Shown: positions 1 to 37,459 of the stretch, piece after piece
How the letters are laid out: the number at the start of each line of letters is the position of its first letter
Numbering within the stretch: the first letter of the stretch is position 1
DNA from: a virus
Lineage: Duplodnaviria > Heunggongvirae > Uroviricota > Caudoviricetes
DNA: 38,621 nucleotides
Virus record (IMG/VR): IMGVR_UViG_2851955134_000002
Reading direction: 5' to 3' (one strand)
The notes under the pieces: generated by a model
The model's input: the letters and a program-made list of their open reading frames with translations, nothing else
What the model was told of the DNA's origin: nothing
Database searches by the model: none
Made by a program: the position numbers and the translations under genes

Positions 1-1005
1 TTAATCCCCCGTGGACACTGCGTGGACACTCACGCCACCTTTCAGCGGATTAAGGGCCACCGCATCCTGCAGGTAATCCGGTGCAAAATGTGCATATGCC
101 ATTGTTTGCTGAATGGTTGCGTGGCCAAGAATCTTCTGAAGCGCAATAATGTTTCCTCCGTTCATCACAAAATGGCTGGCGAACGTATGCCGCAGCACAT
201 GTGCAGCCTGGCCTTTTGGCAAATCGGGCTTAACTCTTTTCAGCGCCAAGCAGAATTCCCGGTACTTCACCTCAAACAAGCCGCCTGTTTCTCTGGTTTT
301 GATCGCCTCACAAACTGCCTGCGAAATTGGCACTGTTCTCTTTCGGCCATTTTTGGTTTCAAGAAACGTTACACGGTTATGAACTATCTGTTCACCACGA
401 AGCTTACAAGCTTCACTCCAGCGCGCCCCCGTGCTTAAACACAAAAGCGCAACACGCCAGTAATCGCCCTCCAGTGTATCGAGCAATAGCGCCACTTCCT
501 TCTGGGACAGGAAAGCCATTTCTCGTGGAGATACATAAAGAATAGAAATTCCCCTTACCGGATGTTCTGCATCCCAGAGGCCTATTTTCTTCAGTACGGT
601 AAACATTCCGGATAACCGATTCATGTATCTGTTAGCAGATGACGGTTTCAATCCATCAGCTATCTTTTGAGAACGCCACGCGATAATTTTTAGCTTATCA
701 AGATCCACAGCCTGCATATCAGCGCCAAGCTCATTGATTATGTTGCGCAGTTGTTTTCGGTCTTCTTCCGCCTTACGCCTGTGCTGGCCATGATACATCC
801 ACCACAACTCAAGCAAATCATTTAGCGTTCGACGATCACGGTAGCCCTGTATATATTCCCGCTTTTCAGCGTTCGCCATGATGTAGCGTTCAGTGGCCAC
901 CGCTACCGATTTTTTGTCAAATACCTTACGCACGCGCTTTCCCTTGCGTCCGTTCGGCCTGATGTCCAGCAAATAACGACCATCTTCGAGCTTCTTAATC
1001 GACAT
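1..1005 (-). CDS. int: Tyrosine integrase, P2 Int-like
   Basis: Translation from MSIKKLEDGRYLLDIRPNGRKGKRVRKVFDKK follows my recollection of P2 Int along its length, including the C-terminal LRHTFASHF...GHATIQQTMAYAHF catalytic region; start moved from the track's 1020 to the ATG at 1005, which has a GGAGGG RBS. Confidence 0.9.
   Translation of the reverse strand: MSIKKLEDGRYLLDIRPNGRKGKRVRKVFDKKSVAVATERYIMANAEKREYIQGYRDRRTLNDLLELWWMYHGQHRRKAEEDRKQLRNIINELGADMQAVDLDKLKIIAWRSQKIADGLKPSSANRYMNRLSGMFTVLKKIGLWDAEHPVRGISILYVSPREMAFLSQKEVALLLDTLEGDYWRVALLCLSTGARWSEACKLRGEQIVHNRVTFLETKNGRKRTVPISQAVCEAIKTRETGGLFEVKYREFCLALKRVKPDLPKGQAAHVLRHTFASHFVMNGGNIIALQKILGHATIQQTMAYAHFAPDYLQDAVALNPLKGGVSVHAVSTGD
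11..29. repeat. attL core: left copy of a 19-bp direct repeat (gtggacactgcgtggacac)
   Basis: Identical to 37441-37459 except one mismatch (a/t at the 5th base); it lies at the 3' end of the integrase gene and its partner lies just past ogr/hok, as expected for prophage ends. Confidence 0.7.
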
Positions 1006-1101
1006 TGCGAAGCCCTCCAATGAACCGCTCTACAATTTCTCCAGCCTCTTTCCAGCAATAATCAGACCAGACAAAAAGCAGGTCTAACCAGTTTTCTGGC
1101 C

Positions 1102-4355: not shown

Positions 4356-4677
4356 GAAACCAGAACATGCACACACAAAAAAACCGCTTGCCATGCCGCA
4401 ATCAGTCAGGTTACATTTCCGCTGCACCTCACAAAACGGGTGCCGGGTTTCGCAGCCTGCTGACTACACAAGCGCACAACCGCGCCAGCGGTTTTTTTGT
4501 GCGTACTGTATTGCCACGTTTTTTTCGCGTCAGAATTATGGCGGGGCGTACGGGGCCGACTTCGGTCGGGCCGGGTTCTTGTGTAGCCGGTACTGCGAAC
4601 CTCGTACGTCTCGCCACCCACAGTTTCGCAGCTCTGGATGGTGAGTTTTCACAACTTACTACACAAGGGGCCACACC

Positions 4678-4908
4678 ATGGCAAACCGCAAACCACACCG
4701 CGCTATCGCGGAGCGTCGTCACATCCAGACTGAAATCAACCGCCGACTTTTCCGCGCATTCCGCGTTGCGCAAATCATGCACATCAACATGCTGCATGAG
4801 CGCAGTCATGCGCTATCAAACACTTATTCCGCCTCTGTTTTCAGCTATCTGGCGGATGATCTACGCGAGCTTCAGCAGCTCATCCAGCAGCAAAACCAAC
4901 TCCGTTAA
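4678..4908 (+). CDS. Hypothetical protein
   Basis: 76-aa ATG ORF with an AAGGGG RBS, after a 320-bp structured non-coding gap. Confidence 0.45.
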   Translation: MANRKPHRAIAERRHIQTEINRRLFRAFRVAQIMHINMLHERSHALSNTYSASVFSYLADDLRELQQLIQQQNQLR

Positions 4909-4980
4909 TTCCTGTTCCGAGCCTTTCCCGCACCCTGCGGCGGGAGGCCTTCGCACATCTGTAGTAAAGAGAATTGCAGC

Positions 4981-5370
4981 ATGATTGACCGTCACGACTT
5001 CGTAAAATGGGTGCGCACACAGGACACCCGTCTGGCCCCAAAACTTCAGGCAATGTTTGATTTTTATCTCCGTGCCCGTGCCAGCCGGGCACGCACCACA
5101 AAACCGGAGAACGCAGACACCCTTTATTTCACCGTGGACGACTGTTACCGCGTGGCCTTTACACCACAAGGTCTGGGCCTGTACACCCTGACACCACACG
5201 GCGACTCCCTGTTGGCGTATTACGACTCCCCGGCCTCCGTATTTGCGGCAATGCTGGCGCATCGTACCGCTGGCGGGTGTGCATCGCTGAGTGAATACAC
5301 CGCTGAATTTAACCGCCTTTCCGTCATCTTTTCGCAGGAGTGGCAGAGCGTGACGGGATACCAGCCATGA
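4981..5370 (+). CDS. Hypothetical protein immediately upstream of gene A
   Basis: 129-aa ATG ORF; no recognisable motif. Confidence 0.45.
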   Translation: MIDRHDFVKWVRTQDTRLAPKLQAMFDFYLRARASRARTTKPENADTLYFTVDDCYRVAFTPQGLGLYTLTPHGDSLLAYYDSPASVFAAMLAHRTAGGCASLSEYTAEFNRLSVIFSQEWQSVTGYQP

Positions 5371-8207
5371 GTGAGTTTGCATGGAGCTGGAATGAACCGC
5401 AGCCAGCTATTGATCCGGACGACTTCGCGAACTTCAGCCGGTTGCCAAAAACCGGACTGCAACGCGCCATTCGTTACTACCTTGAGGCAGACAAAAAGGC
5501 CCAGGAAGAACAGGAAGCGAAGGGAGAAGCCTTTTTCGCACAATCCGCCATGGGTAAAAAACTCATGGCATCCCTTGAGGAAGCCGGGCAACACAAAAAA
5601 CTGATAAAAAACATCATCAGTAAGCGCCAGGAAATAAAGCAAGACCCGGTGGCCCGTGCATTTGTCACACTAAAGGCGCTTCCCGTTTATCTGCGAGAAC
5701 CCCTGAGCCGCCACCTCTCGTTCCTGCGCAAGAAGCAGGAAGCCGATCGTCAGAAAGGCAAAAAGAGCTGGCAGGCCGAACGCTACGCGCGCGGAAACCT
5801 GCGCAAAATATTCGAACGTCTGAAGCGCACCGACAGCCGCTGGCTGACACAGGGGTATCGCTCCCTTGCCGGACGCGAACGCCTGGACGATTTGCTTTAC
5901 CTGCCGCAGCTCAACAAACACCAGATACAGACGCTGGCCACCATGACGGCGGCGATGTTCAGCAGCACCTTCGAAAAACTCTGCGATGGCTTTGGCGCGA
6001 CCGATGGTGAGCTGACCATGGATGTAACGCTGAAGGCGTATCAGATGCTGGCCCGCATGGCGTTACACCTGCACACCATGCCGCCGCATTATGACGCACT
6101 GACAACAGACAAAGACCGGAAGAACGAACCGGACACGGAGCTGCTGCCAGGCGCAATCCTTCGCCTGACCTGTGCGGAATGGTGGAAACGCAAACTGTGG
6201 CTTTTACGTTGCGAGTGGAGAGAAGAACAACTCCGCGCCGCCTGTCTGGTTTCCAGAAAAACATCGCCCTATCTGAGCCAGGACGCATTAAGCGAGTTTC
6301 GCGCACAGCGCGAGAAAACACGCGATTTCCTGAAAAGTTTCATGCTGGAAAACGAAGATGGGTTCACGATTGATCTCGAGACAGTGTATTACGCGGGAGT
6401 AAGTAACCCGGTTCACCGTAAGGCAGAAATGATGGCCACCATGAAGGGGCTGGAACTTCTGGCCGAAGCCCGTGGCGACAAAGCGGTGTTTCTGACTGTC
6501 ACCTGCCCGTCAAAATACCACGCCACAACAGAGAACGGTCATCCGAATCCCAAATGGAACGGGGCCACCATGCGCGACTCCAGCGATTACCTGGTTAACA
6601 CGTTTTTTGCGGCGGTCCGCAAGAAACTGAACCGCGACGGCCTGCGCTGGTATGGCATCCGCACGGTGGAGCCTCACCATGACGGCACCGTGCACTGGCA
6701 TATGATGGTCTTTGCTCATCCGGAAGAAATCGACACCATTGTGTCCCACACCCGCGATATTGCCATTCAGGAAGATCGTCACGAGCTGGGTGATGATATT
6801 ACCCCACGCTTTAAGGCGGAGTACGTCGACGGCTCAAAAGGCACACCGACCAGCTACATCGCCACCTACATCGGGAAAAACCTGGACAGCCGTGCCGTGG
6901 ATGGCATCGACCCGAAAACGGGCAAGCCACGCGTTGACCACGAAACCGGAAAATCAATGGCCGAGAGCGTGGAACGCGCCATCGGCTGGGCGCGCCTTCA
7001 CCGTGTCCGCCAGTTCCAGTTCTTTGGTATCCCCTCCCGTCAGGTGTGGCGTGAACTCCGCCGCCTTGCCAGCCAGATGGCACGCAACCCGGAAGGCCCG
7101 CAACGGCTGAAGGATGACGCAATGGATGCGGTACTCGCTGCCGCTGATGCCGGATGTTTTGCCACCTACATAGAGAAACAGGGCGGCGTACTTGTTCCAC
7201 GCAAAGACTACCTGATTCGCACCGCCTACGACCTCGCAGAAGAGCTGAACGATTACGGCGAACAGAGCGCACAGATTTATGGGATCTGGTCACCACTCAT
7301 CGGGGAATCCTCCCGTGTGTGCACGCACCCGGATAACTGGAAGCTGGTAAGACGTAAACCGGAAGCGGAAGACAACACCCGCGAAAATGGTTTTGACCTT
7401 CAGGGCGGCCCTGCCGCCCCTTGGACTCGTGGCAATAACTGTCCCCGTGTACAGGAAACAGACAACAACGGGACAGAACAACCGGAAGAACGGCCAGCAC
7501 CGTGGCCGCAGATTCCTGACGGCATTGAAGTGAATGAATGGATGCGCTCACTGAAACGGCACGAACGCCGGGCGCTGATGCGTTCGCTGCGTGACAAACA
7601 GGCAAAAAACAGCAGCGATGAAATGCAGAACTGGACGCAGGGCCGCAAACAGCCGCGGCCTTTGCCTGATAACCACGAGTTACTCGCTAAAGAATGGCGG
7701 GAGTCTGCTGAATCTCTCGGCCTGCATATCGGTGAACAGCAGATGCAGCACCTGTTACGGGGCGGCAGTCTGTACGTTGACGGCAGCATCATTGCACCGC
7801 AGGGATTTGAAATTGTACGCAAACCGGATACCCGACCGGACAGCCGAATCACGCAGCTCTGGCAACGCCTGAGCCGTAATCACGGCGTAAGCAGCACGGA
7901 GATCCGCCATAACCCGGTCGCCAGCTATCTGGAACAGCTGGGGGCATCAGACCCTGAAGCCGCCGCACGCCTGGCATCCACACTTCAGCAGGACCAGAAC
8001 ACCATGAAAACACCCGTTACCGTGCTTTCTGACATGCTGCGCGCCATCCGCGACGCAGAGCACGCACAGAGAATCAGTGAAACCACTGAACGCGCCCGCC
8101 GCAAAGCAGACCTGCTGCGGGGTGGCCTGACCAGTGGAAACAAAAAACAGACAGAAACGGGATTCACAAATCCCGTAAATGAGCAAAAAACGCGCCGCGA
8201 TATATGA
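5367..8207 (+). CDS. A: Replication initiation endonuclease (P2 gpA family, rolling-circle HUH type)
   Basis: Large ORF with an HUH-like motif (EPHHDGTVHWHMMVF) and paired tyrosines (SYIATYIGKN) as in P2 A; the track starts on GTG at 5340, and 5349 (GTG) or 5367 (ATG) are both possible starts. Confidence 0.85.
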   Translation: MSEFAWSWNEPQPAIDPDDFANFSRLPKTGLQRAIRYYLEADKKAQEEQEAKGEAFFAQSAMGKKLMASLEEAGQHKKLIKNIISKRQEIKQDPVARAFVTLKALPVYLREPLSRHLSFLRKKQEADRQKGKKSWQAERYARGNLRKIFERLKRTDSRWLTQGYRSLAGRERLDDLLYLPQLNKHQIQTLATMTAAMFSSTFEKLCDGFGATDGELTMDVTLKAYQMLARMALHLHTMPPHYDALTTDKDRKNEPDTELLPGAILRLTCAEWWKRKLWLLRCEWREEQLRAACLVSRKTSPYLSQDALSEFRAQREKTRDFLKSFMLENEDGFTIDLETVYYAGVSNPVHRKAEMMATMKGLELLAEARGDKAVFLTVTCPSKYHATTENGHPNPKWNGATMRDSSDYLVNTFFAAVRKKLNRDGLRWYGIRTVEPHHDGTVHWHMMVFAHPEEIDTIVSHTRDIAIQEDRHELGDDITPRFKAEYVDGSKGTPTSYIATYIGKNLDSRAVDGIDPKTGKPRVDHETGKSMAESVERAIGWARLHRVRQFQFFGIPSRQVWRELRRLASQMARNPEGPQRLKDDAMDAVLAAADAGCFATYIEKQGGVLVPRKDYLIRTAYDLAEELNDYGEQSAQIYGIWSPLIGESSRVCTHPDNWKLVRRKPEAEDNTRENGFDLQGGPAAPWTRGNNCPRVQETDNNGTEQPEERPAPWPQIPDGIEVNEWMRSLKRHERRALMRSLRDKQAKNSSDEMQNWTQGRKQPRPLPDNHELLAKEWRESAESLGLHIGEQQMQHLLRGGSLYVDGSIIAPQGFEIVRKPDTRPDSRITQLWQRLSRNHGVSSTEIRHNPVASYLEQLGASDPEAAARLASTLQQDQNTMKTPVTVLSDMLRAIRDAEHAQRISETTERARRKADLLRGGLTSGNKKQTETGFTNPVNEQKTRRDI

Positions 8208-8248
8208 AGCGCGCACAAAACAGGCAAAAGCGGGATTTCAGAATCCCG
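8158..8248. repeat. Two copies of a 18-bp perfect hairpin (cgggatt-N4-aatcccg) at 8158-8175 and 8231-8248
   Basis: Each has a 7-bp stem and 4-nt loop and is followed by gtaaa; they bracket the gene A stop and sit upstream of the parM-like gene. No U-tract, so not classical terminators. Confidence 0.5.
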
Positions 8249-8283
8249 TAAACGATTAATTAATCAACATAAGGAAAAGCGAC

Positions 8284-9243
8284 ATGAAAATTTGTATCGA
8301 CGACGGCTCCACCAACATCAAGCTGGCATGGACTGAGAACGGCGAACGCCGCAACGCCATCAGCCCGAACAGCTTCAAGTCGGAATGGTCTGCGCCGTTC
8401 GGTGGCACGCAGCCCGCGAACTACATGCTTGATGGCGTGCGCTATGGTTTTGATCCGGTCAGCGATCGCTTTGTCCAGACGACCGACACGCAATACCAAT
8501 ACAGCGATGTGAATGTCATTGCCATTCATCACGCGCTGGTCAAATCAGGCATCACGCCACAGGAGGTGGATGTGGTTGTCACCCTGCCACTGAGCGAGTA
8601 TTTCGACACAAACGCACAGCCGGACATGGCCAACATCAACCGCAAAAAAGCGAACGTTATGCGCCCGGTGGAGTACCAGAACGGCGAAGCATTCACTATC
8701 CGTAACGTGCGGGTTATGCCTGAATCCATTCCGGCTGGCTTTAAGGCACTGGCTGACATGAGTCCATTTGAATCTCTGCTGATTGTGGATTTAGGCGGAA
8801 CCACGCTGGATGTGGCAAAGGTTCAGGGGCAACTGGCAGGCATCAGCCAGGTATTTTGCGATCCACACGTAGGCGTTTCACTGATGACCGATGCCGTACT
8901 GTCGGTGATGGCCACTAACGGTATGCGTACCAGTCACCACATCGCCAATACCATTATCGAACATCGCCATGATGAAGCCTGGCTGCGCCAGCACATCCAC
9001 AATGTCGCGCATTACGACAGCCTGATGGCGGTTATTCGTGAAAAGGAAGAAACTCTGAAACAACGCGTGATCCGCGCGCTGGCGGGGTTTTCGGGGTACG
9101 GTCGGGTGATGGTTGTCGGTGGAGGGGCGGAGATTGTGGCTCCGGCGGTACATGACGCTTACGGCCTCAACGCAAACATTCACACAACACCGGAGCCACA
9201 GTTTGCCCTGGTTAATGGACTCCATGACATGGACAGGGAGTGA
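8284..9243 (+). CDS. parM: ParM/StbA-like actin-family partition ATPase
   Basis: N-terminus MKICIDDGSTNIKLAW...ISPNSFK...YQYSDVNVIAIHHAL...VMPESIPAGF...IVDLGGTTLD...MVVGGGAE closely tracks plasmid R1 ParM as I recall it, at similar length (319 aa). Confidence 0.85.
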   Translation: MKICIDDGSTNIKLAWTENGERRNAISPNSFKSEWSAPFGGTQPANYMLDGVRYGFDPVSDRFVQTTDTQYQYSDVNVIAIHHALVKSGITPQEVDVVVTLPLSEYFDTNAQPDMANINRKKANVMRPVEYQNGEAFTIRNVRVMPESIPAGFKALADMSPFESLLIVDLGGTTLDVAKVQGQLAGISQVFCDPHVGVSLMTDAVLSVMATNGMRTSHHIANTIIEHRHDEAWLRQHIHNVAHYDSLMAVIREKEETLKQRVIRALAGFSGYGRVMVVGGGAEIVAPAVHDAYGLNANIHTTPEPQFALVNGLHDMDRE

Positions 9244-9247
9244 ACCA

Positions 9248-9559
9248 ATGACAACATCAACCAGGCGGATAAGTTTCTATCTGAAGCCTGCAGCCGTCAA
9301 GAACGAAAGCGAAGCATGCGCCTGGCTGGACAGCCTTACACCAGAAGCCCGCAAAAGCGGCCAGCGTGTGGCTTTTCTGGCCGGGCTGGCACTTCTGAAA
9401 ATGAATCCAGCAGAGGCTTACCGACTGGCTGCATGGGCTGACGATGAGGCGTTATCAGTGACACAAACCAGGACAGAACGCCCCGAGTCACAGCCAGTAC
9501 CAACCGCACAGATAACCAGTCAGATGGCCGGAAATATCCGGGCGTTATTTCCTGAATAA
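9248..9559 (+). CDS. parR: ParR-like partition adaptor
   Basis: 103-aa ORF 4 nt after parM with a GGGAG RBS; N-terminus (RRISFYLKP...ACAWLDSL...RVAFLAGLAL) resembles the ParR DNA-binding region as I recall it; start taken at the internal ATG 9248 rather than the track's 9113. Confidence 0.6.
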   Translation: MTTSTRRISFYLKPAAVKNESEACAWLDSLTPEARKSGQRVAFLAGLALLKMNPAEAYRLAAWADDEALSVTQTRTERPESQPVPTAQITSQMAGNIRALFPE

Positions 9560-9937
9560 CATCAGGGCGTATTCGCCCTGCCACCAATCCCATAACATAA
9601 AGAACGGGGTGCAAATCACTATGCACCCCGTTCCAATACAAACCATCAGAAGATCTACACATCTTTCTCAAATGGCCAAGTAATCGAGCTGGTTCAGGAA
9701 TAAGCATGCTGCCAACACAAGTGAAGGAGATAAAACTGTAGAACTGATCAATCGTTGGAAACAAGTATTGACAATATGTTCGAGTAACCCAACTGGATAG
9801 ATTTTATGCTGATTATCCATACAGTAAAAAAGTGAGGATACTCTTTGAATAACGCCAGCAAGAGTGGTAACATTAGGCACTGATTTTCATCAATGCAGTT
9901 ACCAGCTTACACAAGCTTATGTTTTATTGGGGGTTTT

Positions 9938-11020
9938 ATGGTAAACGTGAGGGAGGATGAACTTTTCAAACTCATCGAGCAAGGCATCAAAGGCAACGCA
10001 AATGCATTTACACTCCTATGCAGAAAGATGATTAACAACATCCGTAAAAATGATGAGGCTTTAGCTTCTAAGCTGGCTTCGTTAATTGCTGAGGGAACAG
10101 TATTACGTGGGGCATCTAGTAAGGCTCCTATGCCTGTGGATGGAGACTCCAGACGAAACCTTTTGCAGGAAACATCTGTCAACGCAATTGTTGAAGAACC
10201 TGTATGGAATACGGATATCTCAAAGAAGCTGGAGTCAATTGTTAACGAAAGAGAGAATGCTGTTTCTTTGTTCAAAGCTGGTCTTGAACCTGTGAAGACG
10301 GTTTTACTTTCTGGCCCGCCAGGCGTAGGCAAAACAATGTCCGCACATTGGCTTGCTGCAAAGTTAAATTTACCTCTTTTAACATTGGATCTCTCATCTG
10401 TAATGAGTTCTCTTTTGGGAAAAACAGGTAATAATATTAAATCCGTTATGGATTATGCCAAAGAGAAACCATGTGTCCTTTTGCTTGATGAATTTGATGC
10501 TGTTGCAAAAAGACGTGATGATGACAGGGACGTTGGAGAATTAAAACGTTTAGTTACTGTACTCCTACAGACCATAGATGAGTGGCCAGCGACCTCGCTT
10601 CTTGTTGCTGCGACTAATCACCCTGATATCTTAGATCCGGCTGTTTGGCGTCGATTTGAGCACATCCTTAAATTTAATATGCCATCAGTAGAACTGATAG
10701 ATAGATATTTAGTCAATCATAATATTGAACCTGAACTATCTAAAAAACTTGCACCATTATTAGATGGCATGTCCTTTGCCATCATTAACCGTATTTTGAA
10801 TTTCTCCAAAAAGAATGAGGTACTTAGAAATATTCCATTTGAAAGCTCATTAATAGAAGCCGTAATTACGGAGAGGGTTTCATTGGATGAATTTAGCGAT
10901 AATGATCTCAATATAATTAAATATCATTTTGACGGTTTTTCAAATAGGAAGATAGCTGAATTAGTTGGTGTTTCACATCCAACAATCGCGAATAAATTAC
11001 AAAAGTGGGGGATTAAATGA
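9938..11020 (+). CDS. AAA+ ATPase with C-terminal helix-turn-helix; first gene of candidate defence pair
   Basis: Walker A (LLSGPPGVGKT), Walker B (VLLLDEFD), sensor-1 (LLVAATN), arginine-finger region (AVWRRFE) and a C-terminal HTH (SNRKIAELVGVSHPTIANKL); AT-rich; start at ATG 9938 (GGGGG upstream) preferred over the track's 9893. Confidence 0.8.
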   Translation: MVNVREDELFKLIEQGIKGNANAFTLLCRKMINNIRKNDEALASKLASLIAEGTVLRGASSKAPMPVDGDSRRNLLQETSVNAIVEEPVWNTDISKKLESIVNERENAVSLFKAGLEPVKTVLLSGPPGVGKTMSAHWLAAKLNLPLLTLDLSSVMSSLLGKTGNNIKSVMDYAKEKPCVLLLDEFDAVAKRRDDDRDVGELKRLVTVLLQTIDEWPATSLLVAATNHPDILDPAVWRRFEHILKFNMPSVELIDRYLVNHNIEPELSKKLAPLLDGMSFAIINRILNFSKKNEVLRNIPFESSLIEAVITERVSLDEFSDNDLNIIKYHFDGFSNRKIAELVGVSHPTIANKLQKWGIK

Positions 11021-13221
11021 TGGAAAGGAACTTACTTTTAGGTAACGGTCATGTTCTGACAAAAAAGGAACCTTTGCCTAAAGGAAGGGATGGTAAGCGC
11101 TATCCCTATACTCTTGAAGAAGTAAGGGAGCATTTAAACCCAGAGATTGATACTTTACTCTCACGCTTTCGCAGTTTGGATGATGCGGCTAAGCCAAGGG
11201 GGGAGAGTGTATTCAATTTAACTTTACACCCAGCGTTTTTGGGTAAAAGCTACTTTCCGGAAGGATTACTTAGAGCGACAGGTTTACGGGATGTCGGTAG
11301 CCGTCAGGTAATCATTCGCCCACGGAAAGCGGCACGTCAGTGCGATCAGAATAAGGACTTAGTAACGGCGCAACTGTTTGTTAGCGGTGATGATGATGCC
11401 GTTATAAGATTTAAGGAAATTTTAAATTCCCCTACAGCTCCGAAGGGCGTACAAAAGGATTTGATCGAAATTGAAAGTGTTAGCTTTTTTGAAGGAAAAG
11501 AGAGAGCACGCAATTTTGAGCATGCGAAAAGTGATTTGATAAAATTTGAAGTGGTTCTTCATGCTGGGGTTGAAGACGATGATATCGTTAAAGCCTATAT
11601 TAGCTATGCGGCACAATATGGTGTCTCTGTTGATTACAAAAGTAGAATCCAAGTTGGTGGACTGACTTTCATCGTTGCACACGCGCGACCTGAAGATATG
11701 AAAAAAACACTCGATTTTTCATTAATCCGCGTTGTGCGGCCGATGCCGTCTCTCAGGTGTACTCAGCCGAACATTGTCAGAAAGTTATCTAATATAGTTA
11801 CACCGGAGCTCCCTAATTCTAAAGCTGTTCTTGAATCCGAACGTATTGCCATTTTTGATGGTGGCTTGGGGACAGCTGACTTGAGTAATTGGGTTACGGA
11901 ATACGTGTATCCAGACACCAAAGAAACAAGCGGATTATTATTGCAGCACGGTAATGAAGTAACATCCACTTTCTTATTCGGACGTGTCGAGGAAAATGCA
12001 CCTTCTTTTAAAAGACCGTTTATGAATGTAGATCATTATAGAGTTCTTTCACCGACATCAGGTGACAATGGCAATTGGGATTTATTTGATGTCCTTAAGA
12101 AAATACAGTCCGTTCTTGATAGTGGTGACTATAAGTTCGCTAATCTAAGTATTGGTCCTCATCTTCCAATTGGTGATGATGAGGTTCATGTATGGACTGC
12201 TGTTTTAGACCAAATCTGTGCTAAGCATGGGATATTACTTACTGTTGCTGTTGGGAATGATGGCAATGAGGACGGTGATGCAGCGAGAATACAACCTCCT
12301 TCCGATATGGTAAACGCGCTAGCGATTGGTGCTGCTGATCGTAGCGGTGAAAAATGGGGGCGGGCACCATATAGCTGTATTGGCCCAGGCAGAAGCCCCG
12401 GATTCGTTAAACCTGATGGTGTTATTTTTGGTGGAAGCGACGACGAGCCTTTTTACACTTACAACCCTCTGCTTGGTTCTATAGTTGGAGTTCAAGGAAC
12501 CAGTTATGCCTCTCCATTAGCATTGAGAACGGCCGCTGGAGTTGCGGCTCTATCAGGAACTCCATTGAACACCATTGCATTGAAAGCGTTGCTTGTTCAT
12601 CATGCTGAAACATCAAGAAAATATTCGCGTGAACATATCGGTTGGGGACGGTTTAGTGAGGATCCTAACGTTTTAATCGATTGTCCAAATGATACTGCTA
12701 CAGTAATTTACTATGGTTCATTAGCAAAAAATAAATATTTAAGGGCACCGATCCCATTCCCTGATGTTCCATTTGACGAAGCATTTGAGCTTACCGCTAC
12801 TTTATGCATTCAAACCCCAGTAGATCCTGAACATTCAGTAAACTATACAAGGGCCGGTATGCAGGTAACTTTCCGCCCAAGATTCGGCCTTGACGATACC
12901 GATACAGATGATTTCTTTGGTCAAAAAAGCCAGTATAAGACTGAAAGGGAGTGTAGGAGTGAAGGTCATAAGTGGGAAACTTGTTTGCACAGAAGCAAAA
13001 AGTTCAGTACTGATACATTATTAAGCGATCCAGTTTTTGATATACGGTATCATGCCCGAGATTCTTCGCGCCATGTTAAGGGAGTTTCAGCCCCTGATAT
13101 GCAATATGCGATGGTAATAAGCGTAAGGGTAAAAGACTTTGATTTATATAATGTTATTCGCCAGCGATATACAATTCTGAATCCTATTCAACTGCGCACA
13201 CAAATTTCTCTCGACACGTAA
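11017..13221 (+). CDS. S8 subtilisin-like serine protease with about 270-aa N-terminal domain of unknown function; second gene of candidate defence pair
   Basis: Subtilase motifs in the canonical D-H-S order (IAIFDGGLG, LQHGNEVTS, oxyanion-hole VAVGNDG, GTSYASP); start overlaps the ATPase stop (ATGA), implying coupled translation. Confidence 0.8.
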   Translation: MMERNLLLGNGHVLTKKEPLPKGRDGKRYPYTLEEVREHLNPEIDTLLSRFRSLDDAAKPRGESVFNLTLHPAFLGKSYFPEGLLRATGLRDVGSRQVIIRPRKAARQCDQNKDLVTAQLFVSGDDDAVIRFKEILNSPTAPKGVQKDLIEIESVSFFEGKERARNFEHAKSDLIKFEVVLHAGVEDDDIVKAYISYAAQYGVSVDYKSRIQVGGLTFIVAHARPEDMKKTLDFSLIRVVRPMPSLRCTQPNIVRKLSNIVTPELPNSKAVLESERIAIFDGGLGTADLSNWVTEYVYPDTKETSGLLLQHGNEVTSTFLFGRVEENAPSFKRPFMNVDHYRVLSPTSGDNGNWDLFDVLKKIQSVLDSGDYKFANLSIGPHLPIGDDEVHVWTAVLDQICAKHGILLTVAVGNDGNEDGDAARIQPPSDMVNALAIGAADRSGEKWGRAPYSCIGPGRSPGFVKPDGVIFGGSDDEPFYTYNPLLGSIVGVQGTSYASPLALRTAAGVAALSGTPLNTIALKALLVHHAETSRKYSREHIGWGRFSEDPNVLIDCPNDTATVIYYGSLAKNKYLRAPIPFPDVPFDEAFELTATLCIQTPVDPEHSVNYTRAGMQVTFRPRFGLDDTDTDDFFGQKSQYKTERECRSEGHKWETCLHRSKKFSTDTLLSDPVFDIRYHARDSSRHVKGVSAPDMQYAMVISVRVKDFDLYNVIRQRYTILNPIQLRTQISLDT

Positions 13222-37104: not shown

Positions 37105-37245
37105 ATGTCGCAAAAATCGCTTACGGCCATCACGTTCTGCGTGACGGCAATCCTCATCATCTGGATGCTGCACGGTTCGCTGTGCGAAATACGGATGAGC
37201 TTCTGGGGAGCGGAATTTGCGGCGTTCTTACAGTGTAAGCAGTAA
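37105..37245 (+). CDS. hok: Hok/Gef-family type I toxin (46 aa)
   Basis: MSQKSLTAITFCVTAILIIWMLHGSLCEIRMSFWGAEFAAFLQCKQ: TM helix, then the SLCEI and AAFL-CK motifs of Hok/HokA; AAGGAG RBS 8 nt upstream; an 8-bp-stem hairpin follows the stop (37265-37286). Confidence 0.7.
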   Translation: MSQKSLTAITFCVTAILIIWMLHGSLCEIRMSFWGAEFAAFLQCKQ

Positions 37246-37440: not shown

Positions 37441-37459
37441 GTGGTCACTGCGTGGACAC
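37441..37459. repeat. attR core: right copy of the 19-bp direct repeat (gtggtcactgcgtggacac)
   Basis: Matches 11-29 at 18 of 19 positions; located after ogr/hok and before the gene outside the prophage. Confidence 0.7.

Follow-up and report, generated by a model that had tools for sequence, protein, structure and literature searches.

The window analysed here, a 38,621-nt stretch of tailed-phage DNA (IMG/VR record IMGVR_UViG_2851955134_000002), carries directly behind the P2-type replication gene A a pair of genes, parM and parR (together parMR), which with a candidate cis-acting site upstream (parC) resemble the type II (ParMRC) partition locus of plasmid R1. The element is a P2-type prophage in the Escherichia coli chromosome, and nucleotide similarity places it in the phage P88 / Xuanwuvirus group. 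Judging from the sequence, the ParMRC homologue is real and very probably functional. We favour the reading that it is a working segregation module, a core feature of the P88-like P2-type lineage, acting on the free circle of phage DNA; to this reading, taken as a whole, we assign a probability of about 0.55.

Type II partition systems combine an ATPase of the ParM/StbA family with intact nucleotide-binding motifs and a small adaptor, ParR, encoded downstream and having an N-terminal DNA-binding (ribbon-helix-helix) domain; both components were found, the adaptor at the family level. The parM product matched both Pfam halves of the protein, StbA_N (1.8e-82, residues 1-157) and the ParM C-terminal domain (2.1e-65, residues 159-316), each far over the cut-off, and the R1 ParM crystal-structure sequences (PDB 1mwk) aligned with its residues 2-314 (E-value 2.7e-91). 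The motifs DDGSTNIK, PESIPAG, DLGGTTLD and GGGAE were kept in comparison with R1 ParM, with the phosphate-binding, catalytic and adenosine motifs unchanged. The initial annotation, made from the letters of the DNA, had taken the open reading frame (ORF) after gene A as ParM along its whole length and the small ORF 4 nt downstream as ParR-like. The profile searches bear out both identifications; an unrelated ATPase of the actin/Hsp70 fold lacking a ParM signature does not fit an alignment to R1 ParM in which all nucleotide-binding motifs are retained. The protein belongs to PHROG 691, ‘partition protein’.

Among 70 distinct alleles of parM the ratio of non-synonymous to synonymous substitution rates (dN/dS) was 0.076. 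The length of the ORF was the same as in the window, 960 nt, in 87 of 90 loci; it was 954 nt in two Hafnia-like loci, and the gene was truncated in the remaining one. The gene is under strong purifying selection. Plasmid ParMs were ∼47-52% identical to the phage protein in tblastn searches (47.5% for the R1-type), while the same kind of search with the phage ParR returned only the phage's own copies and no close plasmid ParR. With even the closest plasmid ParM at just ∼52% identity, and with plasmid ParRs beyond the reach of tblastn, the capture of the module must be old.

The parR product matched Pfam PF10784 (Plasmid_stab_B) with 1.7e-24 over profile positions 1-71 of 72, a family that is also matched by the ParRs of R1-type, IncFIA, IncI1 and IncL/M plasmids; it was assigned to PHROG 2515. 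With 4 nt between parM and parR, the genes follow the order candidate parC-parM-parR with translational coupling. Constraint along parR was uneven: dN/dS was 0.21 in the N-terminal 60 codons, 0.63 in the linker (codons 61-91) and 0.10 in the last 12 codons. The N-terminal strand RRISFYLKP was invariant among alleles. The C-terminal NIxxLFPE was nearly invariant and aligned with the C-termini of plasmid ParRs (KKNAMKLIN in the R1-type, NIKNLFPDDE in IncFIA); in R1 the C-terminal tail of ParR is the part that binds ParM. Between these ends the linker (9428-9520) was hypervariable and, across loci L007-L094, mosaic: N-terminal alleles of two or more types recombine freely with several linker/C-terminal types (e.g. 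P0027 and P0029). Neither the strand of ParR that contacts DNA nor the upstream palindromes described below varied along with the linker alleles. Such a profile is the pattern expected of a working adaptor. No relevant match to the ParR sequence was found in PDB. An AlphaFold monomer model built from a 35-sequence alignment had a predicted local distance difference test (pLDDT) score of 58 and drew the expected N-terminal strand as a helix, probably since the fold needs a dimer.

Two palindromes lie just upstream of parM (Table 1); each forms the core of one copy of a 42-nt direct repeat. The pattern GGGATT-N4-AATCCC had these two matches only in the 38.6 kb, even when two mismatches were allowed, against a chance expectation of 0.12; a count of two was reached in 1 of 100 shuffles. 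Palindrome 1 overlaps the 3′-end of gene A, with the stop codon at 8207, and so does not lie in the intergenic spacer. Both cores were present in all 65 distinct upstream sequences collected from relatives; the spacing of 73 bp (∼7 helical turns) was kept in 64 of them and the distance of 52 nt from the core of palindrome 2 to the parM ATG in 63. Over 780 kb of related DNA we counted about two such sites per locus, and the repeat region was found at 94-99% identity in exactly the 14 phage records having parMR. In a Hafnia contig, the most distant relative, the 3′-end of gene A has diverged, yet both cores and their A-rich leaders are kept. The stop codon of gene A is there located in the loop of palindrome 1; thus, the conservation of the palindromes is not explained by coding.

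The initial annotation had described the two sites as perfect hairpins and proposed that they could be a minimal centromere. The hairpins are where they had been placed, but their perfection is a property of this copy, since about a third of the distinct relatives are mismatched in one stem (25 of 65 for palindrome 1 and 17 of 65 for palindrome 2). None of the stem changes was compensated; they were always one-sided, so it is the sequence that selection maintains, as it would at a site bound by a protein, rather than the pairing of a hairpin. A reading of the palindromes as RNA hairpins was ruled out on the same ground. The pair behaves as a conserved cis element that occurs together with parMR, and a role as candidate centromere is reasonable. 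The region would fit a ParR-binding parC with two units around a central segment, loosely like parC of R1.

An array of ten phased 11-bp iterons of the R1 kind was also considered for positions 8130-8283, where A-tracts look roughly phased by eye; it was rejected, as the power at 10.5-11.5 bp was reached by 196 of 2000 shuffles. Upstream of parM no further repeated element was found. The parC regions of the R1-type, IncFIA, IncI1 and IncL/M relatives contained A/C- or T-rich iterons, and GGGATT palindromes were not found in them. The segment between the two repeats (8186-8213, AAAAACGCGCCGCGATATATGAAGCGCGCA) is a GC-rich imperfect palindrome with an AT core holding the gene A stop codon; in relatives the core differs (ATAAAACATG, CGATATAAG) while the GC arms are kept. 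This segment could hold a weak -10 element for parMR.

Table 1. Features of the parMR region and of the prophage that carries it (positions in the window)
Feature	Position	Strand	Remarks
Tyrosine integrase	1-1020	-	Start of the window
Gene A, P2-type replication gene (HUH rolling-circle initiator)	5340-8207	+	Pfam Phage_GPA, 2.2e-131
Candidate parC, two 42-nt direct repeats	8141-8182, 8214-8255 (region 8141-8255)		79% identical, 73 bp apart
Palindrome 1, CGGGATTCACAAATCCCG (arms CGGGATT and AATCCCG, loop CACA)	8158-8175		Within the last codons of gene A
Palindrome 2, CGGGATTTCAGAATCCCG (same arms, loop TCAG)	8231-8248		In the spacer between A and parM; 52 nt from the start of the GGGATT core to the ATG of parM
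parM, actin-fold partition ATPase, 319 aa	8284-9243	+	Stop codon 9241-9243; AAGGA ribosome-binding site upstream
parR, predicted centromere-binding adaptor, 103 aa	9248-9559	+	ATG 4 nt past the parM stop
Stem-loop GAACGGGGTGCA / TGCACCCCGTTC	9601-9634		12 perfect bp (13 with the flanking pair); ∼40 nt past parR

The position of the module in the lineage was fixed. In relatives parMR always followed gene A directly, and the upstream 1.5 kb formed one cluster in 76 of 77 of them. The DNA 3′ of parR, on the other hand, fell into nine clusters among 74 related loci, and in one relative the portal gene stood right behind parMR. Nucleotide homology to relatives ended at 9559-9604, just past parR, at the stem-loop listed in Table 1. 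Given a constant upstream and a variable downstream side, we consider parMR to be the fixed left border of the P2 defence hotspot. The initial annotation had suggested that the module might have been co-acquired with the adjacent defence pair, IetAS; this is contradicted by the pattern just described, the IetAS cargo being common to only one other locus. A defence function for parMR itself was considered and set aside, as PADLOC gave no match for ParM or ParR (the neighbours matched IetA and IetS) and, unlike the changing cargo, parMR is a constant of the lineage.

Fourteen phage records, among them P88, P884B11, 520873, 503458 and Citrobacter phage phiSM, contain the 1.5-kb parMR segment with 92-96% identity, and most of the 14 annotate it as ParM or a partition protein. 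Among 5426 complete E. coli genomes the cassette was present in 1307 (24%), including those of the ST131 and O157 lineages, with two or three copies in some genomes; 1453 of the 1455 copies were on chromosomes. It is kept across Escherichia, Salmonella, Citrobacter, Cronobacter and Hafnia. In the search for distant relatives that might show covariation, a scan of GTDB genomes gave three close loci only, and ParR homologues were confined to Escherichia and its near relatives; the Hafnia contig was the most distant relative that could be used. One ParM 93% identical to that of the window (locus L089, NZ_JBQPOM010000071.1, ‘Vagococcus sp. WN89Y’) is on a 226-kb contig labelled as Gram-positive; the label most likely reflects contamination or a mislabelled assembly.

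That the element is integrative, as the initial annotation had it, was confirmed. The order of genes is integrase, helix-turn-helix (HTH) repressor, cox and gene A, then the portal gene, late genes and ogr. An att-like direct repeat (GTGGACACTGCGTGGACAC / GTGGTCACTGCGTGGACAC, 18 of 19 positions identical, of which 14 bases were an exact match and the remainder was extended by eye) occurs at 11-29 and 37441-37459, and the right flank contains flk, an E. coli core gene present in 5425 of the 5426 complete genomes. Phage-plasmids are autonomous replicons, typically without reliance on integration; with integrase, att repeat and chromosomal flk flank, the element falls outside this definition. A free P88-like circle does exist, because a complete P88-like genome has been deposited as a circular record of 34,461 bp (NZ_CP148288.1, our L001/L095), the ‘plasmid’ of an E. 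coli isolate from a cat. Besides integrase and parMR, this record has hok and a com/methyltransferase pair; it may represent either a phage that was excised and replicating or a genuine episome. A match to a 26.8-kb Shigella ‘plasmid’ was discarded as evidence of an episome, as it is a linear fragment.

We suggest that the free circle is where the module acts, because the prophage is normally chromosomal and parMR comes immediately after gene A, which encodes the rolling-circle initiator. The stretch from gene A to parM showed neither a terminator on the plus strand nor a good sigma-70-like promoter; from this we infer that infection or induction leads to expression of parMR together with the early operon. 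In a mechanism modelled on R1, dimers of ParR would bind the two GGGATT-N4-AATCCC palindromes, and probably also the A-rich flanks of the 42-nt repeats that straddle the end of gene A. The C-terminal tail of ParR would capture the ends of ATP-bound ParM filaments, and growth of a filament between two ParR-parC complexes would drive sister circles apart. The target would be the excised or not yet integrated circular phage genome in the course of replication, and the expected benefit to the phage is that its copies are kept apart, in both halves of the cell or in both daughter cells. Such an action would be in line with two precedents, srpMRC of SXT/R391 integrative and conjugative elements (ICEs) and, in another actin family, AlpAC of prophage CGP3, which are compared below.

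Several points weigh against this interpretation. A phage bound for lysis has no obvious need of faithful partition. P2 itself and most P2-like phages do without the module, about three quarters of them lacking it (PMC9122126). The candidate centromere consists of two palindromes, as against the ten 11-bp iterons of R1, and the 11-bp periodicity of A-tracts was not significant. A weak autoregulated promoter in the repeat region (TGAGCA-15 nt-TATATG) is possible and would allow expression in the lysogen. The searchable literature yields no functional study of the phage parMR family, nor data on binding, expression or stabilisation.

The alternative we take most seriously, unlikely as we judge it, is facultative plasmid lysogeny: the module would let non-integrated P88-like phages persist for many generations as low-copy plasmids, an idea of Rousset et al. 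(2022) that is in print as a suggestion (PMC9122126) and to which the initial annotation came close in speaking of a stabilised episomal state. It would account for the circular 34.5-kb ‘plasmid’ record and for the presence of a Hok/Gef homologue near attR; P88-like phages carry relatives of both stabilisation loci of R1, parMRC and hok/sok. Phage D6, a P1-like phage that lives as a plasmid prophage, is the sole other phage in a collection of 50,697 records with an R1-type ParM (46.5% identical), annotated as a StbA-type stability protein. Yet nearly every E. coli copy is chromosomal, and integrase and att sites are present, the integrase also in the circular record. Replication, moreover, needs gene A of the early operon, which the P2-type immunity repressor switches off in lysogens, so that a repressed plasmid would not replicate. 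Spontaneous induction would account just as well for one circular contig; phiSM has been described as spontaneously active (PMC6456863). A more far-reaching form of the idea, that P88-like phages are facultative phage-plasmids persisting as low-copy rolling-circle episomes by means of parMRC and hok/gef if integration fails or after excision, is to our mind improbable to a further degree. If it were true, an extrachromosomal lifestyle would lie hidden in a prophage family that about one in four E. coli genomes contains, and its centromere would be a new minimal type made of two palindromes and overlapping a replication gene.

We likewise regard it as rather improbable that the palindromes are something other than a centromere, namely terminators or insulators of antisense (minus-strand) transcription or the operator of another regulator, with the real ParR sites located elsewhere or lost. 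On the minus strand both hairpins precede a T-rich stretch and were scored as terminator-like in a consensus scan, and relatives often have minus-strand cargo genes 3′ of parR that are transcribed towards parMR. Opposed to this are the one-sided stem changes, which no single strand could tolerate in full as G-U pairs, and the likeness of the two copies in sequence as well as in structure at a fixed 73-bp spacing. The palindromes occur only with parMR, a much stronger hairpin (9601-9634) already stands between parR and the cargo, and nothing else that is repeated was found upstream of parM. There is very little to recommend the notion of a competition device, in which ParR and parC would cause partition incompatibility or other interference with related phages, P4-type satellites or plasmids. 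The module does adjoin an anti-phage hotspot, its ParR alleles are mosaic with a fast-evolving linker, and some genomes have two or three copies. PADLOC, however, matched neither protein, the phage ParR has no close plasmid counterpart, tblastn having returned the phage's own copies only, and neither the strand that contacts DNA nor the palindromes differ between alleles, although avoidance of incompatibility predicts that they should. Least credible of all is a plasmid-derived passenger, decaying or neutral, gained with the hotspot genes and now idle for the phage. The module does border the variable hotspot of P2, among whose contents it was counted by Rousset et al.; but the low dN/dS and full-length retention of parM, the age of its capture implied by the distance to the nearest plasmid ParM, a position that is fixed while cargo turns over, and retention across five genera all disfavour an idle gene pair.

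Between parR and the portal gene the window has, at 9893-13221 on the plus strand, the defence pair IetA (an AAA ATPase with a C-terminal HTH) and IetS (an S8 peptidase). Their scores were well under the NCBIfam equivalog cut-offs (253 versus 510 bits and 115 versus 900 bits), so that the pair was classified as a divergent variant. The stem-loop at 9601-9634, at the left margin of the cargo hotspot, probably ends the operon or acts as an insulator, and it may mark the recombination boundary of the hotspot.

An ORF for a toxin of the Hok/Gef family (46 aa, 37105-37245, plus strand; Pfam HOK_GEF 4.1e-07) is located between ogr and the attR candidate. The locus is also present in the genomes of P88, P884B11, Chuche and phiSM, where it is annotated as ‘MokW-like host killing’; no Sok-like RNA was detected above the Rfam threshold. 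Rfam matches on the plus strand were obtained for isrK (4424-4498, 64 bits) and for C4 antisense RNA (4534-4621, 83 bits). Both fall in the first part of an ORF at 4367-4984 that has a Phage_ASH domain, and the region looks like the P1/P7-type antisense control of an antirepressor placed in a P2-type early region.

The gene pair and the idea of plasmid maintenance are already known, and novelty is low in this respect. RefSeq names the proteins ‘plasmid segregation protein ParM’ and ‘plasmid partitioning/stability family protein’, and PHROGs class both as ‘partition protein’. Rousset et al. (2022; PMC9122126) reported that about a quarter of P2-like phages have a putative partition system that might permit plasmid maintenance. 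The phiSM paper (PMC6456863) lists the gene as a ‘fitness’ factor without studying it, and the P88 paper does not mention the gene pair. With the cassette in 24% of complete E. coli genomes, with these annotations and with a precedent in ICEs (PMC4489591), the surprise that the initial annotation expressed at a partition cassette in an integrative prophage was overstated.

The finding adds no new kind of system, and its interest, which is modest, lies in the biological role. Common as parMR is, the role of an actin-type segregation machine in an integrating phage with rolling-circle replication apparently has no published test. The analysis narrows the question, in that the pair turns out to be kept by selection as part of the core of the lineage, as opposed to hotspot cargo, and it offers a concrete, mutable candidate for the centromere, two palindromes 73 bp apart overlapping the end of gene A. 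The candidate bears on whether phages, like ICEs, use partition systems for a transient circular stage.

The closest known system is parMRC of R1/NR1 (the parA/stb locus). The order of (candidate) cis site, parM and parR is the same; ParM aligns end to end (47.5% identity) with all ATP-binding motifs; the two ParRs share a Pfam family and match in their C-terminal tails; and the candidate cis region upstream of parM has two repeat units around a central segment. The phage module differs in residing on an integrative P2-type prophage, whereas R1 is a low-copy plasmid, and in its ParR of 103 aa with a hypervariable linker as compared with 116-117 aa. The candidate centromere of the phage consists of two 18-bp palindromes within 42-nt repeats, the first of which overlaps the coding end of gene A, while that of R1 is made of ten 11-bp A/C-rich direct iterons.

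In its setting the module is more like srpMRC of the SXT/R391 ICEs, shown experimentally to stabilise the excised form that replicates by rolling circle (Carraro et al. 2015; PMC4489591). This too is a type II partition system on an element normally integrated into the chromosome; its action is confined to the circle formed transiently by excision, which has HUH-initiated rolling-circle replication, and it has its cis site, with direct and inverted repeats, upstream of the ATPase gene. SrpM, however, is distant from R1 ParM and SrpR has no recognisable ParR domain, whereas both phage proteins are clear members of the R1 family; the host element is an ICE and not a phage, and the role of srpMRC is established by experiment while the phage module is known from its sequence.

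In Corynebacterium prophage CGP3 the AlpAC system couples the circular DNA of the phage to actin-like filaments, and efficient replication depends on it (Donovan et al. 2015; PMC4446434). There, as here, an integrated prophage has an actin-like filament protein, AlpC, and a co-transcribed adaptor, AlpA; the adaptor binds upstream of its own operon, and expression is early on induction. Unlike in the P88-like phages, AlpC is from another actin-like family, the adaptor is unrelated, and the demonstrated role is efficient replication, not partition. Phage D6 shares with the P88-like phages the R1-type ParM, but D6 measures 91 kb, and the annotation of its ParM homologue reads StbA-type plasmid stability protein. 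If D6 exists as a plasmid, the use of partition to it is obvious; P88-like phages, in contrast, integrate.

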